Part shown: positions 5,898 through 12,694 of the stretch, piece by piece
How positions within the stretch are numbered: position 1 is the stretch's first letter
Layout of the letters: each line of letters starts with the position of its first letter
Origin: a virus
Direction: 5' to 3' (one strand)
DNA length: 64,000 nucleotides
IMG/VR virus record: IMGVR_UViG_3300035698_008372
Coordinates: 76,004-140,003 of that record
Notes under the pieces: generated by a model
Database searches by the model: none
Seen by the model: the letters and a program-made list of their open reading frames with translations, nothing else
What the model was told of the DNA's origin: nothing
Position numbers and translations under genes: made by a program

Positions 5898-5970
5898 GCG
5901 ATTGAGGTGTTCAAGGGGAGCACGTCGGTATTCCATATCGAAGGAGTGGGTTCGAATCCTGCCGATCGCT
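5898..5970 (+). tRNA. tRNA-Gly(TCC), atypical (A8, A32-U38)
   Basis: Acceptor GCGATTG/CGATCGC, U73, anticodon arm TCGGT-ATTCCAT-ATCGA, T loop TTCGAAT. Confidence 0.85.
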
Positions 5971-5981
5971 CTATTAAAAAT

Positions 5982-6054
5982 GCGATTGAAGTGTAACAGG
6001 TAAGCACGCCGACATACCATGTCGGAAGAGTGGGTTCGAGTCCTACTGATCGCT
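5982..6054 (+). tRNA. tRNA-Gly(ACC), atypical (A8, A32-U38, rare A34 anticodon)
   Basis: Acceptor GCGATTG/TGATCGC, U73, anticodon arm CCGAC-ATACCAT-GTCGG, T loop TTCGAGT. Confidence 0.85.
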
Positions 6055-6081
6055 CTATTAATGCAAGGAAAAAAATGTTAT

Positions 6082-7239
6082 ATGAACTTCTCAAGTAAAT
6101 TTTTCGATATCAAACCATTTGATATAGAAGAAGAAAAACAAAATCTAATCAATAATTTGGACTTTTTACATTCTATGACAGTGGAAGAACAAACCCTGTA
6201 TAAGAAATGGCAGGAGTTCAATAAGAACGAACATAAGATCAGGGGGAAAGCCCACCTGTTTGATGTGTTTGAAAAAAGGTTATGGGCACCAACCGATATC
6301 TATGATGAGGATTTAACCATTAAGGAAATTAATGCGTTGGAGCCAGTTGTAGAATATGCAGGAAGCGATGAAGCTGCTGATTGGTCATTGTATAGGATGT
6401 TAATTCACACAATGGATTGGTCTGCGAACCCCGGTAGAAATATGAAATTCTATGTAAAGGATGCTGTCACTCGTAAGGTGTTGGGTCTAATATCAATGGG
6501 TTCAGATGTTACCAGTATCAAGGTCAGAGATGATTATATTGGTTGGAAAAAAGAAGATAAATTTGTAAATCACAAGTTGAATAATACGGCTATAGCCAGC
6601 ACAATTGTGTCGGTTCAACCATTGGGTTATAACATGCTTGGTGGAAAATTGATAGCCGCGTTGGCAACAGTGTCAACAATTAGGGACAAGTGGGAAAAGG
6701 AATATGGTGATGTTCTAGCTGGGGTTACAACCACTTCATTATATGGCATCCATTCACAATATAACGGAATTCCACATTGGAAAACGATGGGTGAATCTGC
6801 TGGCAAGATTAGGATCAAGCCAGATGATAGTGAATATTTGAAATGGAATAAGTGGCTCAAAGAGAATTATCCAGATGAGTTTGAAAAAGCCATTACTGGA
6901 ACGGGTCCCAAACAGAATGTATTAAGCAAGGTATTCAGCCATTTGAAAATTAGAGGTTATGAGCATGGATTTCATAGAGGTGTCTATTTTGCGTCAATCT
7001 ATGATAATACAGTGCCATTCTTAAAGGGTGAAATTGAACAATCTGAGCTCAAAATGAAACTGAAATATGAACAGGATTATGAATATATCGACAGGTGGTG
7101 GAAAAAGAAAGCCATAAGACGATATCAGAACATGATTGCACAGGATAGGATTAAACCAGAGAAATTATTCTATGGTGATATCGTGGGTGTATCTTGGGAA
7201 GAATGCCAAGAAATGTATTTAAAAGAAGTGGGGAGATAA
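6082..7239 (+). CDS. DUF4338 / DruA-like protein (putative GNAT-fold DNA-modifying enzyme)
   Basis: PGRNMKF, RDDYIGW, QPLGYNMLGGKLIA, TTTSLYG..SQYN, GES.G; start moved downstream of the tRNA. Confidence 0.75.
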   Translation: MNFSSKFFDIKPFDIEEEKQNLINNLDFLHSMTVEEQTLYKKWQEFNKNEHKIRGKAHLFDVFEKRLWAPTDIYDEDLTIKEINALEPVVEYAGSDEAADWSLYRMLIHTMDWSANPGRNMKFYVKDAVTRKVLGLISMGSDVTSIKVRDDYIGWKKEDKFVNHKLNNTAIASTIVSVQPLGYNMLGGKLIAALATVSTIRDKWEKEYGDVLAGVTTTSLYGIHSQYNGIPHWKTMGESAGKIRIKPDDSEYLKWNKWLKENYPDEFEKAITGTGPKQNVLSKVFSHLKIRGYEHGFHRGVYFASIYDNTVPFLKGEIEQSELKMKLKYEQDYEYIDRWWKKKAIRRYQNMIAQDRIKPEKLFYGDIVGVSWEECQEMYLKEVGR

Positions 7240-7412
7240 TGAGTAAAACACTAGTTGAGAAGATCGAAGAATTGGGTACTGATTGGAGCAAGGTGAATAC
7301 CGCTTTGCATCACTTATGGTCAAAAAATGTCGGAACTGATAATTATGACAAAGAAGAATGGAAATTGTTAGAAAAATATATATATAAAATTATATTGAAA
7401 GACAGGGGATAA
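7239..7412 (+). CDS. Small hypothetical protein
   Basis: ATG overlaps the upstream stop (TAATG). Confidence 0.55.
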   Translation: MSKTLVEKIEELGTDWSKVNTALHHLWSKNVGTDNYDKEEWKLLEKYIYKIILKDRG

Positions 7413-7416
7413 GCTT

Positions 7417-9177
7417 ATTTATAAGTCAATTTATTTCGAAGCGGAAAAACAGAAGATTCATTTGTGGGATGATGACCGCGGCTATTTCACAATACCATAT
7501 AGACGTTATGGGTATATAAAAGATAGGGGCGGCACATATACTTCATTATATGGGGACAGGCTTAAGAAAATCCACAAGTGGGGCAAAGATTCCACTGGAT
7601 TATTTGAGAGTGATGTACACCCTGAAACAAGAACATTAATTGATCTGTACACCAATGACGATGAACCATCAAAAGGTAACAAAACGATTATTATTGATAT
7701 TGAAGTCGAGGTCACAGATGGATTCCCAACTGCTACTTTGGCCGAGAATAAGGTTACGGCTATATCAATTTACGATTTTACGGATAAGAAATATTATGGT
7801 TTGGTATTGGAAAATGGCAAGGGTATTATCAAGCCATCCACAACTCCAGAGCTTGACATTGAAGTGTTTGATATGGAAGTTGATTTGTTGAATAGATTCA
7901 TGCAGATATACCTACGCATAAAACCAACTATTATTACTGGTTGGAATGTGGATAGATTTGATGTAACATACCTATACAATAGAATGGCCGATCAGCTGGA
8001 TGAAGATGTAGCCAATTGCTTGTCTCCAATCGGTGTGGTACATTGGAGTGATTTCAGGGGTAGCTACAGAATCGCTGGGGTTGCAACAATGGATTACTTA
8101 CAGTTGTATAAGAAATTTACATTTACGCAACAGGCTTCATACAGATTGGATGCGATTGCTGATTTCGAATTGGGTGAACGCAAAATTGAATATGATGGTA
8201 CACTAAACGAATTATATGAAAATGACATTGAAAAATTTGTCCAATACAACATCCATGATGTTCGACTAATTGAGATGTTGGACAAGAAATTGAATTTTAT
8301 AGAAATCGCTCGTGGTATTTGTCACTTGGGGCATGTTCCGTATGAAGATATTTACTATGACAGTAGATACCTAGAGGCTGCTATTCTTGTTTATCTGAAA
8401 AAATTGAACATCATCGCTCCGAATAAGCCCGAGCGTGAGGGTTGGAAGGATGAAATTGGCTTTGAGGGTGCTCACGTTCAAAAGCCCAAGAAGGGTCGTC
8501 ATAATTGGGTATATGATTTGGATTTAACATCAATGTATCCAAGCATCATTATGTCGTTGAACATTTCTCCAGAGACAAAAATAGGTAAAATAGATGGGTG
8601 GGATTCCAATAAATTTGTGAAAAAAACCCCAAAAACCTATACTGTCAAATATGGTACAACCGCACTCCAATCCATGGATCAGGATGAACTACAGGTATTT
8701 TTTGATACCAATCATGTGTCGGTATCGGCCAATGGGATATTGTACAAAACTGATAGGGATGGCCTAATCGCGTCACTCCTGAAAAAGTGGTTCGACGAAC
8801 GTGTTGAATTCAGAAAATTGGCTAAGAAGTTTGCCGACGCGGGTGATAACGAGAAATATGATTATTTCAATAGACGACAACATATCCAGAAGATTCTCCT
8901 TAACTCACTTTTTGGGGCACTCGGTTTGCAGGGTTGGAGATTCCATGACGTAGACAACGCCCTTGCAGTTACATCGACGGGGGTAGAATTAATTCGATTT
9001 TCCAAAACCATTGCAAACCATTATTACAATACTGAGCTTGGTAAAGAAATTGAACTTGAAATGGAAGATGGGTCTATCAGAAAATTATATGAAAATTGGC
9101 CAATCCATGTAAAAAGGGGTGGTAAAAAAGTTCAAATTTTAGCCAAAAATCTCAAAATAAATGATGATATTCTCTAA
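7417..9177 (+). CDS. polB: Family B DNA polymerase, N-terminal fragment (exonuclease + motifs A/B); probable ATT start
   Basis: DIEV, TGWNVDRFD, YNIHDV, DLTSMYPSII, KILLNSLFG; frame is open from ATT 7417 behind AGGGGA. Confidence 0.92.
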   Translation: MYKSIYFEAEKQKIHLWDDDRGYFTIPYRRYGYIKDRGGTYTSLYGDRLKKIHKWGKDSTGLFESDVHPETRTLIDLYTNDDEPSKGNKTIIIDIEVEVTDGFPTATLAENKVTAISIYDFTDKKYYGLVLENGKGIIKPSTTPELDIEVFDMEVDLLNRFMQIYLRIKPTIITGWNVDRFDVTYLYNRMADQLDEDVANCLSPIGVVHWSDFRGSYRIAGVATMDYLQLYKKFTFTQQASYRLDAIADFELGERKIEYDGTLNELYENDIEKFVQYNIHDVRLIEMLDKKLNFIEIARGICHLGHVPYEDIYYDSRYLEAAILVYLKKLNIIAPNKPEREGWKDEIGFEGAHVQKPKKGRHNWVYDLDLTSMYPSIIMSLNISPETKIGKIDGWDSNKFVKKTPKTYTVKYGTTALQSMDQDELQVFFDTNHVSVSANGILYKTDRDGLIASLLKKWFDERVEFRKLAKKFADAGDNEKYDYFNRRQHIQKILLNSLFGALGLQGWRFHDVDNALAVTSTGVELIRFSKTIANHYYNTELGKEIELEMEDGSIRKLYENWPIHVKRGGKKVQILAKNLKINDDIL

Positions 9178-9239
9178 GTTTATACTATTTATATACAGAC
9201 ACAATGTATCAATGTATAAAATATAAATTGGAGAGTAAG

Positions 9240-10079
9240 ATGAAAAAGGGGTCAGCGAGAACATTACAATATTGATTGGATAAAGGGTATAAAGGGGAAG
9301 AAGCAGAAAAAATGCGTATGAGCAGAATTCCAGGTACTATAGAATATTTTACTATATTTAAGGGGCTCCCATTGAATGAGGCCGAAATTGCGAAAGAAAA
9401 TTATAACAAAAGGTCCGTTCCGACATTGGAAAATATGATACGCAAGTATGGGGAAACTGAAGGTGAAATTAGGTGGGGTGCATATCGTGAAAAACAGGCA
9501 AAATCCAATACATTTGAATATAAGCGTGATAAGTATGGTTGGACATTGGAACAATTCGATGCTTATAACAAATCAAGGGGATTGTCTGGTAAAGACAATG
9601 GCAATTATGGGTCGAGCTATTATGAAGCTTGGGTTAAAAAGTATGGAAAAATAAAGGCCGATGAAATGAATAATGCTTTAGGTGAATTGAAAGCCAAAGG
9701 GGGGAAATCTCAAAAAGGTGTACCCAAATCATTTGTGGCTAGAAAAAATATGAGTATAGCTGCAAAGAAAAGGATAATGGATCAGGGTACTTACATTTCA
9801 TATAATCCAAATTCAATTCCGATAATTGAAAAATATGGAAAAGAAAATGGATATAAATTTCAACATGCTGAAAATGGCGGCGAATATTTGGTTAGGGAAG
9901 TTTACTATTGGGTAGATGGGTATGATCATGAAAATAATGTGGTGGTTGAATATGATGAAAAATACCATGAAATGCAAACGGAAAAAGATAAAATTAGGCA
10001 ACAACATATAATGGATGTGTTGGGGTGCAAATTTATAAGAATTAAAGAATCTGGAGAAATTAAGATTTATGAAAATTAA
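9240..10079 (+). CDS. Free-standing endonuclease (Vsr/DUF559-like C-terminus) between PolB fragments; 1 in-frame TGA
   Basis: GGAG RBS, then MKKGSARTLQY*LDKGY (TGA 9273); KYG repeats; YWVDGYD...VVEYDEKYH...D.IRQ..I...LGCKFIRI. Confidence 0.8.
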
Positions 10080-10990
10080 AAATATAAGGGAATCAAAAGG
10101 TGTCGATGTGGATCATGTTATCTACATCGACACGTAGTGCGGATTCACTATTTATTTCGTCAACCGCGATGGTGAGCAAACGATATGGAAACAAGAAATT
10201 CAGTGATGTCATGCTGTCACAGTACATCTTGACAATAGCTGGTGACACCCAAAAATTCATAAATAACTCGTATGACTATTTTGCCAAGAAATTCTGTAAT
10301 CTTCCCGGTGCACACCGGTTTGAGATTAAACAGGAATTGATTGCAAAGTCAGCTGTATTTGTCAATGCTAAGAAAAATTATGGGTTGCGTGTTATCAATG
10401 ACAATGGTGTGAAAGTGGATAAAAATGTGTACAAAGGCTTGGCCGTAGTTCGCAGTGATTTCCCACAATCATACAGAAAATTGTTAGGTGAGGTGCTAGG
10501 TGATGTTCTAGCGGATGTTCCAAAAGATAAGATCGACGATCGTATTATTGAATACAAAAACAACATGAGATACTTGAATGTCGAAGATATCGCCAAACCA
10601 ACTGGGGTTAAGAATATCAAAAAATATTTGGTTCCACCTGGAGCGGGTGGGGGATTTTCTACTTGGAAGTCTCGTTGTCCTATCCATGTCAAATCATCTA
10701 TCATATACAATGATTTGATTAAGCATTTTGACAAACAAAAGAAGTACGCATTGATAGGGGCCGGCGACAAGGTCAAATGGGTGTACTTAAAGAAAAATAA
10801 TTTAGGATTAGAAAGTGTGGCTTATACAGGTCACGAAGACCCAAAGGAAATTATGGATTTCATATATAATTTTGTGGATAGGGATAAGATGTACGATAGT
10901 ATATTTTTGAACAAAATCACATCAATATATTCTGCCATGGACTGGTCGTTGCCCATAGATAAAAAGTTCTCGATGGACAGATTTTTTTAA
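10069..10990 (+). CDS. polB: Family B DNA polymerase, C-terminal fragment, interrupted by 7 nt (10135-10141) within motif C
   Basis: MKIKNIRESKGVDVDHVIYIDT-[TAGTGCG]-DSLFIS; KKNYG, KGLAVVRSD, PIHVK; C-terminal SMDRFF. Confidence 0.88.
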
Positions 10991-10993
10991 TCG

Positions 10994-11023
10994 TTTGGGC
11001 ACATTAATGTATATGTATATATA
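10994..11023 (+). promoter_or_regulatory. Putative phage middle/late promoter
   Basis: TTTGGGCA...TATATGTATATATA upstream of the clamp gene. Confidence 0.55.
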
Positions 11024-11041
11024 AAGAAACAAGGAGTTACA

Positions 11042-11761
11042 ATGGAAAAAGGAAAATTAGTACGGTTTATTCAAAAATATCATTTGAATGGCAACGTACA
11101 ATCGGTTTCAATGAATAGTGACGGTGAGACGTTAAAGGCGGAGTTTGTAACTTCGGACAGAGGGTTGCTCGGAACTATTAAAATGAAGAATTGGGGATTT
11201 GAAAAATCCAAAATTGGTATCTTGGATACTGAGAAGTTCTTAAAATTATTGGCAGTATTGGATAATGATGTTAAATTGTCATTGTTAAAAGCTGGCGATA
11301 CGGCAATCACATTAAAGGTCGCGGACAATAGTTCTACAGTCAATCTGATGTTATCAGACTTGTCGGTAATTCCAGCTGTACCGCCTTTGAAGTATGTGCC
11401 GCCAATGAATCTCAAGTTGAACTTGGATTCAAATTTCATTAAGAAGTTTATCGCTGGTAAGGGTGCTCTATCCGATGTGGATAATTTCACAGTGGTCACA
11501 GATAACGATTCTGTTAATTTGGTGATCGGTTATGCATCAATTAATACGGACAGGGTTATTGTTCCAGTTGATACTGAAGTATTCGAAAAGATTGACAAGG
11601 TATCATTCAACGCAAATATCTTCAAAGATATCCTGCAATGTAACCGTGAATGTAAAAGTGGAGTAATGGAAATCAGCTCAGAGGGTCTTTCAAAACTGAC
11701 CTTTAATGTTGATGACTATGAAGTTGTGTATTTCTTAGCCGCATCTGAAAACGTAGGATAA
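11042..11761 (+). CDS. Sliding clamp (T4 gp45/PCNA-like)
   Basis: 239 aa, two-domain beta-rich pattern, ends ISSEGLSKLTF..YFLA; lies between PolB and the clamp loader. Confidence 0.75.
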   Translation: MEKGKLVRFIQKYHLNGNVQSVSMNSDGETLKAEFVTSDRGLLGTIKMKNWGFEKSKIGILDTEKFLKLLAVLDNDVKLSLLKAGDTAITLKVADNSSTVNLMLSDLSVIPAVPPLKYVPPMNLKLNLDSNFIKKFIAGKGALSDVDNFTVVTDNDSVNLVIGYASINTDRVIVPVDTEVFEKIDKVSFNANIFKDILQCNRECKSGVMEISSEGLSKLTFNVDDYEVVYFLAASENVG

Positions 11762-11767
11762 ACAACA

Positions 11768-12694
11768 ATGGTTAGAAAAACATCTCATTCGATATGGTGT
11801 GAATTATATCGACCAACATCAATGGAAACATTCGTAGGAAATGATCATCTCAAGGATAAAATTGATATGTACATTGAAACCAATGATCCGCCCCACCTGT
11901 TATTTCATGGTAAGGCGGGCACTGGTAAAACTACATTGGCCAAGGTCATACATAATAGTATAGACTGTGACCACTTGTACATCAATGCTTCAGACAAAGG
12001 TGGTGTGGATTACATTAGGACTGATATCATTCCATTTGCCAGTAGTGTTGGATTTAGGGAGTTGAAATTGGTTATCCTCGATGAGGCCGACTTTTTGACT
12101 CCACAATTCCAAGCATCACTACGCAACGCTATGGAAACGTACGCGATGAATACTCGGTTCATATTGACTTGCAATTACCCCGAACGGATAATCGAACCAA
12201 TACAGAGCCGGTGCCAAATGTTTGAAGTTTATCCTCCAAGCAAAAAGGAAATCGCCGTACATGTCAGTGCAATATTGGCAAAAGAGGGTGTGAACCATAC
12301 CGCGAGTGACATCGGATTGATTGTCAATAGTAAATATCCAGACATTAGAAGTATTATCAATACATTGCAGAAACAATCAATTAATGGTGAGCTGAGATTG
12401 GACAAGCGTTCGGTTGTGGAAAGTGACTATAAATTGAAGATATTGGATGTACTGAAAAAGCAGGATAAGAAAAACTCATTTGCTAGTATTAGACAAATGG
12501 TGGCGGACAATTCAATCAGAGATTTCGCTGAGATTTATTCAATGTTATTTTCTGAGGTGGATGATTACGCTAAGGGTCATATCGCTCAAACGATATTGAT
12601 TCTGGCCAGATACCAATTGAGTGATTCTCAAAGTGTCGATAAAGAAATAAATTTTATGGCATGCGTAATAGAATTGTTAGATTGTATTAAGTAA
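11768..12694 (+). CDS. Clamp loader AAA+ subunit (RFC/gp44-like)
   Basis: W.E.YRP, GKAGTGKTT, INASD, ILDEAD, IQSRC, PDIRSIIN. Confidence 0.93.
   Translation: MVRKTSHSIWCELYRPTSMETFVGNDHLKDKIDMYIETNDPPHLLFHGKAGTGKTTLAKVIHNSIDCDHLYINASDKGGVDYIRTDIIPFASSVGFRELKLVILDEADFLTPQFQASLRNAMETYAMNTRFILTCNYPERIIEPIQSRCQMFEVYPPSKKEIAVHVSAILAKEGVNHTASDIGLIVNSKYPDIRSIINTLQKQSINGELRLDKRSVVESDYKLKILDVLKKQDKKNSFASIRQMVADNSIRDFAEIYSMLFSEVDDYAKGHIAQTILILARYQLSDSQSVDKEINFMACVIELLDCIK

Follow-up and report, generated by a model that had tools for sequence, protein, structure and literature searches.

A candidate translational stop-hop in motif C of a phage PolB, carried by a gene-splitting endonuclease cassette

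The window analysed here is a 64,000-nt stretch of viral DNA (positions 76,004 to 140,003 of IMG/VR record IMGVR_UViG_3300035698_008372). It carries a PolB gene whose reading frame is broken, within the catalytic motif C, by 7 extra nucleotides that begin with a stop codon. We propose, with a probability of roughly 0.7, that these 7 nt act as a coding gap, which ribosomes would skip by a short, programmed bypass during translation (a stop-hop), and which is carried by a mobile endonuclease cassette that splits PolB. The reading is drawn from comparison of sequences and builds on a conserved stop codon, matched Thr codons in most lineages, a covarying hairpin and intact open reading frames on both sides of the insert. 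Positions below are those of the window, and all features lie on its plus strand.

Read directly, the site is TAC ATC GAC ACG / TAGTGCG / GAT TCA at 10123-10147, and the wider reading around the junction is GAT CAT GTT ATC TAC ATC GAC ACG TAG TGC GGA TTC ACT ATT. The YIDT codons occupy 10123-10134 and the 7 extra nucleotides, TAGTGCG, occupy 10135-10141, with the stop TAG at 10135-10137. The GAT that encodes the D of DS starts at 10142, and the 7 nt break the frame within YIDT/DS. Frame A is open from the ATG at 10068, reads MKIKNIRESKGVDVDHVIYIDT and then meets the TAG. Frame B (ORF 10100-10990) reads ...RSADSLFISS..., is homologous to PolB from DS on (phrog_262 positions 580-844) and runs to the natural PolB C-terminus. 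Since the upstream gene at 7462-9177 matches phrog_262 positions 58-569, the segment missing between the two matches corresponds to the approximately 10 residues encoded in frame A. The motif YIDT/DS (or xxDT/DS) is uninterrupted in 38 of the 38 related viral contigs examined; deleting exactly 7 nt therefore recovers the family motif. The window PolB has the exonuclease domain together with motifs A and B, and its motif C is complete only when the 7 nt are skipped. The preliminary description of this DNA had reported a stop-bearing 7-nt insert within YIDT/DS, flanked by coding sequence on both sides and restoring the motif on exact removal, and the direct reading bears this out.

In terms of a hop, the take-off codon would be ACG, the Thr codon of YIDT (10132-10134), followed by the untranslated gap TAGT (10135-10138). 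The proposed landing codon is GCG (10139-10141), near-cognate to ACG with a G.U pair at codon position 1.

Two other ways of reading the site were considered and set aside. Decoding of TAG as a sense codon was rejected, as frame A past the TAG meets a TGA and has no polymerase homology, which lies in frame B. The gene caller predicts an internal frame-B start at GTG 10100; this would lose YIDT and was rejected as a general solution, because the L048/49 lineage has a frame-B stop and no start ahead of DS.

Related polB genes with short inserts at DT/DS, which the preliminary description had suggested looking for, do exist. Searches of protein and contig collections revealed nine further lineages with a frame-breaking insert exactly at this position, and decoding would resume at GAT in all of them. 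Two share the 7-nt form of the window, with take-off ACG and gap TAGT, and have ACG (L066) or TCG (L046/47) as the landing codon. The insert of L048/49 is 10 nt long, with TAGTTAA between two ACG codons. The remaining lineages carry 5 nt. In L060/61 and L062 both codons are ACT, and the gap is TG and TA, respectively. Take-off from ACG is followed by gap TG and landing codon ATG in L063/L075, by TA and ACT in L067 (which also represents the lineage of P0048) and by TG and ACT in L068. In L072-76 take-off ACC and landing ACT are separated by TA.

Several features are constant across this set. A stop codon (TAG, TGA or TAA) stands straight after the Thr codon (ACG, ACT or ACC) in 10 of 10 lineages, and none of the insert lengths (5, 7 or 10 nt) is a multiple of 3. 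A Thr codon directly precedes GAT in 7 of 10 lineages: ACG in lineages such as L066 and L048, which are sisters of the window, and ACT in 5-nt lineages. The other three differ from the take-off codon at one position, namely the window (GCG, the G.U pair), L046 (TCG, a U:U mismatch) and L063 (ATG). Frame A keeps the pattern [VC][IL]Y[IT]DT in the hop lineages. The hop-bearing downstream ORFs (43B) are intact in 9 of 9 checked, with 277-292 codons and 42-89% pairwise identity, and in the tree the hop-bearers fall in at least five places among unsplit relatives. The form of the insert is thus conserved over deep divergence, which argues against a one-off scar; the ten lineages and nine intact ORFs likewise agree with the earlier view that simple pseudogenisation is unlikely. 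In L048/49 the gap holds a TAA in the +1 frame and no start codon lies ahead of DS, so a simple +1 shift or an internal start is ruled out there.

At least 23 contigs, taken from assemblies of different samples in ENA, JGI and Logan, encode a protein identical to the downstream protein of the window or differing only in the called start. In 11 of the 11 that were read as DNA, GACACG-TAGTGCG-GATTCA is present. Because the same 7 nt recur across independent assemblies, they cannot be an error of assembly or sequencing confined to this one record. Exact-pattern scans for the window's own junction with a gap of 0-12 nt returned nothing from viral and metagenome contigs once the window's own record was left out. 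A blastn search of 7400-11100 against the phage collection gave only one 92-nt match at chance level, and that collection therefore contains no cultured close relative. One contig, L045 (positions 1-75), has downstream sequence identical to that of the window and the same 7 nt, but its leader (KSIKKVSVDADSSESTKDHVIYIDT) is different and extended, and its hairpin has a larger loop. Members of one phage population therefore differ in their cassettes; the L045 contig ends at this point.

Directly upstream of the gap, the mRNA is predicted to form a hairpin at 10100-10133. The 5' arm GTGTCGATGTGGAT (10100-10113) and the 3' arm ATCTACATCGACAC (10120-10133) form 14 bp closed by a 6-nt loop (10114-10119), and the last two bases of the 3' arm are the first two of the take-off codon. 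The minimum free energy is -21.9 kcal/mol, and the fold has z = -5.1 relative to shuffles in a 93-nt context. Each of the 11 hop-bearing sequences that were folded forms an equivalent hairpin of 12-14 bp, with energies from -13 to -23 kcal/mol and a mean of -18.9. No such hairpin forms in the 24 distinct relatives lacking the insert, which average -3.7 kcal/mol with a best value of -9.0 and include the split, hop-less L064. A search with a DNA pattern describing only the hairpin returned 5 viral contigs, each of which carries a hop. The small CAC-GTA-GTG hairpin noted earlier at the stop codon exists as well, but it comprises just 3 bp and the 5-nt lineages do not conserve it; the structure that matters is the 14-bp stem upstream.

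The pairing of the large hairpin is maintained across 8 lineages, in which 92% of the alignment cells can pair, compared with at most 55% when the partners are slid. The leader codons GAT, AAT and GGT track ATC, ATT and ACC in the Y-I/T-D codons, and compensatory GC<->AU double changes occur at two pairs. These counts are modest, since both arms also encode protein and the lineages share ancestry, and we regard the covariation as suggestive, not overwhelming. We infer that the hairpin acts as the stimulator of the hop.

The insert is part of a mobile homing-endonuclease cassette that has split PolB, a context that the preliminary description of the insert did not mention. The first part of the polymerase, 43A (7462-9177; Pfam PF03104 and PF00136; phrog_262 58-569), holds the exonuclease domain, motif A (DLDLTSMYPS), motif B (KILLNSLFG) and a C-terminal tail encoded by the cassette. 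Its homology to the unsplit relative L002 stops after ...NTELG at 9042. The C-terminal extension that follows (CTE, 9043-9177; 44 aa, KEIELEMEDGSIRK...NDDIL) is the first part of the cassette, missing from unsplit relatives and conserved in all split ones. Next comes a free-standing, homing-endonuclease-like ORF of 267 aa (9276-10079), which is weakly DUF559/Vsr-like. Its match to Pfam PF04480 (E=0.0013, 19 bits) lies under the cut-off of 20.6; the Pfam search gave no HNH domain, and a PDB sequence search gave no meaningful match. The C-terminus of this ORF, WVDGYD..VVVEYDEKYH...D..R...LGCKFIRI, is Vsr/DUF559-like in look.

The second part of the polymerase, 43B, starts in frame A (10068-10134), and its first 12 nt overlap the endonuclease ORF in a different frame. 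It begins with the leader MKIKNIRESKG, followed by VDVDHVIYIDT, a cassette-encoded replacement of the parental stretch. The same leader is present in 9 other lineages. Its conserved, basic core KIK[NDHT]I[RK]K has a similar counterpart in the hop-less split genes P0016 and L064. From the resume codon GAT (DSLFISS...) to the stop codon, 43B continues in frame B (10142-10990), comprising the rest of the palm and the thumb, and is 85% identical to unsplit L002. The polymerase is split 11 codons upstream of the insert.

The extent of the cassette can be seen by comparing L066, which carries both cassette and hop, with L002, which carries neither. The two are 98.6-98.8% identical on both flanks, and the BLAST limits place 1,093 nt in L066 where L002 has 29 nt (TDKDYVIYID), indicating a cassette of about 1.1 kb. 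The first 30-35 nt or so on either side are more diverged. This fits co-conversion, and the donor tract therefore probably includes the landing codon. L064 has a homologous endonuclease ORF in the same position. In L048, L060, L063 and L068 this ORF has decayed or been deleted, while the split, the hairpin and the hop are kept. The split also occurs with neither hairpin nor hop, in L064/L069 and P0016, and the endonuclease is intact in L064. The insert is therefore not obligatory for the cassette. An intein was rejected as an identity for the element, as the tail begins KEIELE..., without Cys or Ser, and the leader lacks HN. A six-sequence alignment of the tail was too diverged to seed a metagenome scan.

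Related arrangements were observed at other loci. In L062 (1390-4000), approximately 2.6 kb with four ORFs, one of them weakly Eco57I-like, lies between the PolB halves, and the tail, the hairpin and the 5-nt hop are kept. In L070 (3027-4231) a different gene, nucleotidyl-transferase/ligase-like in look, is present as two overlapping ORFs that have no endonuclease in between, of which the first carries a related tail at its end (...IEMEDGSIRKFYEN...) and the second begins MKIKRIK.... The pair of tail and leader therefore seems to be a portable module of several fractured genes. The related PolB C-terminal halves P0063-P0067 start with the C-part of a split intein, ending ...VLVHN/SVFF, which makes motif C a split-intein site as well (DTD/S), one residue from the hop site. 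In L048 (6483-8762) and in the P0048 contig, the clamp-loader gene is divided between two ORFs that match Intein_splicing (PF14890) weakly and flank a nuclease-like ORF, unlike the clamp-loader gene of the window, which is whole (11768-12694). The replication genes of the window are flanked by two adjacent tRNA-Gly genes with TCC and ACC anticodons and a DruA-like gene (5898-6055 and 6019-7239) and, from 12695 onward in near-identical contigs, by three tandem Mom-family genes. These two tRNA-Gly genes are the only tRNA genes carried by the record, in which a phage tRNA-Thr was not found.

The following mechanism would account for the arrangement. Ribosomes would start 43B at ATG 10068, read the frame-A segment and pause when the Thr codon ACG (10132-10134) occupies the P site and TAG the A site. 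At this point the 14-bp hairpin would have been melted by the ribosome, with its 3' arm in the E site and exit channel and the loop and 5' arm already outside. Re-zipping of the hairpin behind the ribosome would pull the mRNA 5'-ward and sequester the first bases of the take-off codon. The peptidyl-tRNA-Thr would then unpair, the mRNA would slide by 7 nt, and re-pairing would occur at GCG (10139-10141; ACG in sister lineages). In the other lineages it would re-pair 5-10 nt downstream. Decoding would resume at GAT and yield ...VIYIDT-DSLFISS... with an intact motif C and the junction ...HVIYIDTDSLFISSTAMVSK. The two products, 43A and 43B, presumably associate non-covalently via the cassette-encoded tail and leader. 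By analogy with T4 MobA/gene 60, the insert probably also destroys the endonuclease target in motif-C DNA and so would protect its carrier. The hop from ACG to GCG that the preliminary description had put forward thus gains support from the conserved stop, the Thr landing codons of most lineages, the hairpin and the intact ORFs.

The strongest competitor, which we nevertheless consider unlikely, is a programmed frameshift without re-pairing, stimulated by the hairpin: the 7-nt forms would shift by +1 at ACG-TAG and the 5-nt forms by +2. It would add one or two residues, giving DT-SA-DS in the window and DT-T-DS elsewhere. The +1 frame is indeed open across the gap of the window (AGT GCG GAT), and +1 shifts are reported to be stimulated by 5' stem-loops (PMC5009743). 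Within the 7-nt group, the codon 5' of GAT varies between Ala, Thr and Ser (GCG, ACG, TCG); all three residues are small, so a +1 shift giving DT-S(A/T/S)-DS would fit this group. However, the +1 frame is closed by TAA in L048/49, and the added length would vary by lineage in a place, the tip of the catalytic DTD turn, where 38 of 38 relatives have no interruption. A frameshift would also leave unexplained why the codon before GAT specifies the take-off amino acid in 7 of 10 lineages.

Termination at the stop followed by reinitiation nearby is improbable. It would produce PolB in three pieces: 43A, a 22-aa peptide containing YIDT, and a 43B' that begins at DS. Overlaps of stop and start in L063 (TGATG) and L060 (TTGA) would allow it there, but no frame-B ATG, GTG or TTG lies between the stop and GAT in the window, L046, L048, L062, L067, L068 or L072. 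We know of no precedent for a free 22-residue peptide that contributes one strand and one active-site Asp to an enzyme.

We give slightly less credence still to the idea that the 5-10 nt are removed or skipped in the RNA, as hairpin-guided processing or a micro-intron would do. The conserved hairpin does adjoin the site. Against this, the conserved stop and the matching Thr codons belong to decoding rather than to splicing, and no splicing system known to us takes out 5-10 nt. Across 8800-10400, Rfam gave no intron match at E<=1; a group I or II intron was rejected on these grounds, and the earlier alternatives of a micro-intron or the scar of a collapsed intron are not supported.

A disabling mutation or artefact, leaving a dead polymerase in a phage that is defective or uses another polymerase, is the least credible explanation: it can appeal to the metagenomic origin and estimated 71% completeness of the record, but the insert occurs in at least 23 independent contigs and ten diverged lineages, its stop, landing codon and hairpin are conserved, the nine downstream ORFs checked are intact, and no second PolB, which the preliminary description would have taken as refutation, was found in the 140-kb record, so that a pseudogene or artefact is effectively excluded.

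In the literature searched, we found no published description of a frame-breaking insert or a bypass in PolB. Efficient programmed bypassing has so far rested on T4 gene 60 with its homologues and on yeast mitochondrial elements, and the gene 60 cassette was called unique in a 2022 preprint (bioRxiv 10.1101/2022.08.31.505936). Shorter natural counterparts with matched codons have long been presumed and not found, according to a 2016 review of recoding (PMC5009743). The present site would be a compact natural case, in which a leader, hairpin, stop, gap and landing codon span about 80 nt within the catalytic motif of an essential enzyme. The natural variation in gap length, stop and landing codon offers a ready-made mutational series. 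If the hop is real, the site would be a natural minimal model of bypassing and evidence that the combination of bypass and homing endonuclease has arisen as a recurrent strategy, not as a T4 oddity. By analogy, the arrangement supports the idea that bypass gaps shield homing-endonuclease cassettes from self-cleavage. On a practical level, automated gene calling will wrongly report such polymerases as truncated or broken.

Among known systems, several share individual features with the window. Synthetic stop-hops and short hops in E. coli (cited in PMC5009743) likewise involve a peptidyl-tRNA moving between matched codons over a few nucleotides and across a stop. They are artificial constructs of low efficiency, whereas the site in the window is natural and conserved, lies in an essential gene and has a hairpin of its own. 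The byps of Magnusiomyces capitatus mitochondria (PMC5009743) are short skipped inserts in essential genes, and their landing tolerates two-out-of-three pairing. They differ from the window in being mitochondrial, in having a rare or unused codon instead of a stop in the A site, in numbering dozens of mobile inserts per genome and in lacking an endonuclease cassette.

Other systems resemble the cassette more than the hop. PolB is split into gp43A and gp43B by a free-standing endonuclease between motifs B and C in T4-related phages (PMC2677866; PMC3045599). In further fractured genes, such as Aeh1 NrdA split by MobE and genes in which Vsr-like endonucleases occur with split inteins, element-encoded tails are presumed to join the halves, as here. 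We found no frame-breaking insert reported for gp43A/43B, for Aeh1 NrdA/MobE or for the split-intein cases (PMC2677866; PMC3045599). Unlike split inteins, the tail and leader of the window have neither the intein nucleophile nor the terminal HN.

The closest parallel is the MobA element, whose architecture carries the bypass of T4 gene 60 (bioRxiv 10.1101/2022.08.31.505936). Both there and in the window, a free-standing endonuclease gene splits an essential replication gene, part 1 receives a tail of about 44 aa and part 2 a leader that overlaps the nuclease ORF out of frame, and a cassette-encoded copy replaces the deleted host stretch. In both, a stop directly follows the take-off codon, a non-coding gap follows, and a stem-loop involves the take-off codon. 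Gene 60 and most PolB hop lineages also have a matching landing codon directly 5' of the resume codon, from which the GCG of the window differs. In both systems the endonuclease has been lost from some lineages that keep the gap, and others keep the split without the gap. For gene 60, a 5' stem-loop 'motor' and a take-off stem-loop have been described, and the re-zipping proposed here for the window hairpin parallels these two elements (PMC5009743).

The differences are equally clear. The host gene is PolB, at motif C, compared with the large subunit of topoisomerase (II) for MobA and gene 60, and the nuclease is weakly DUF559/Vsr-like, compared with the HNH nuclease MobA. The shift totals 5-10 nt, with 2-7 nt between codons, instead of 50 nt. 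Thr codons (ACN) are used instead of the Gly codon GGA, and the leader is shorter, at 22 aa compared with about 46 aa. All of the hairpin is located 5' of the gap, whereas that of gene 60 is formed by the gap sequence. No sequence homology is detectable between the two cassettes. The window cassette works like the MobA element but is not a member of it, given the PolB host gene, the lack of HNH and the gap of 5-10 nt. We consider it fairly probable that it represents a second phage bypass system of independent evolutionary origin: a family of PolB cassettes in uncultured phages with T4-like replication genes, which would use a minimal Thr-to-Thr stop-hop of 5-10 nt driven by a single re-zipping hairpin of 12-14 bp.
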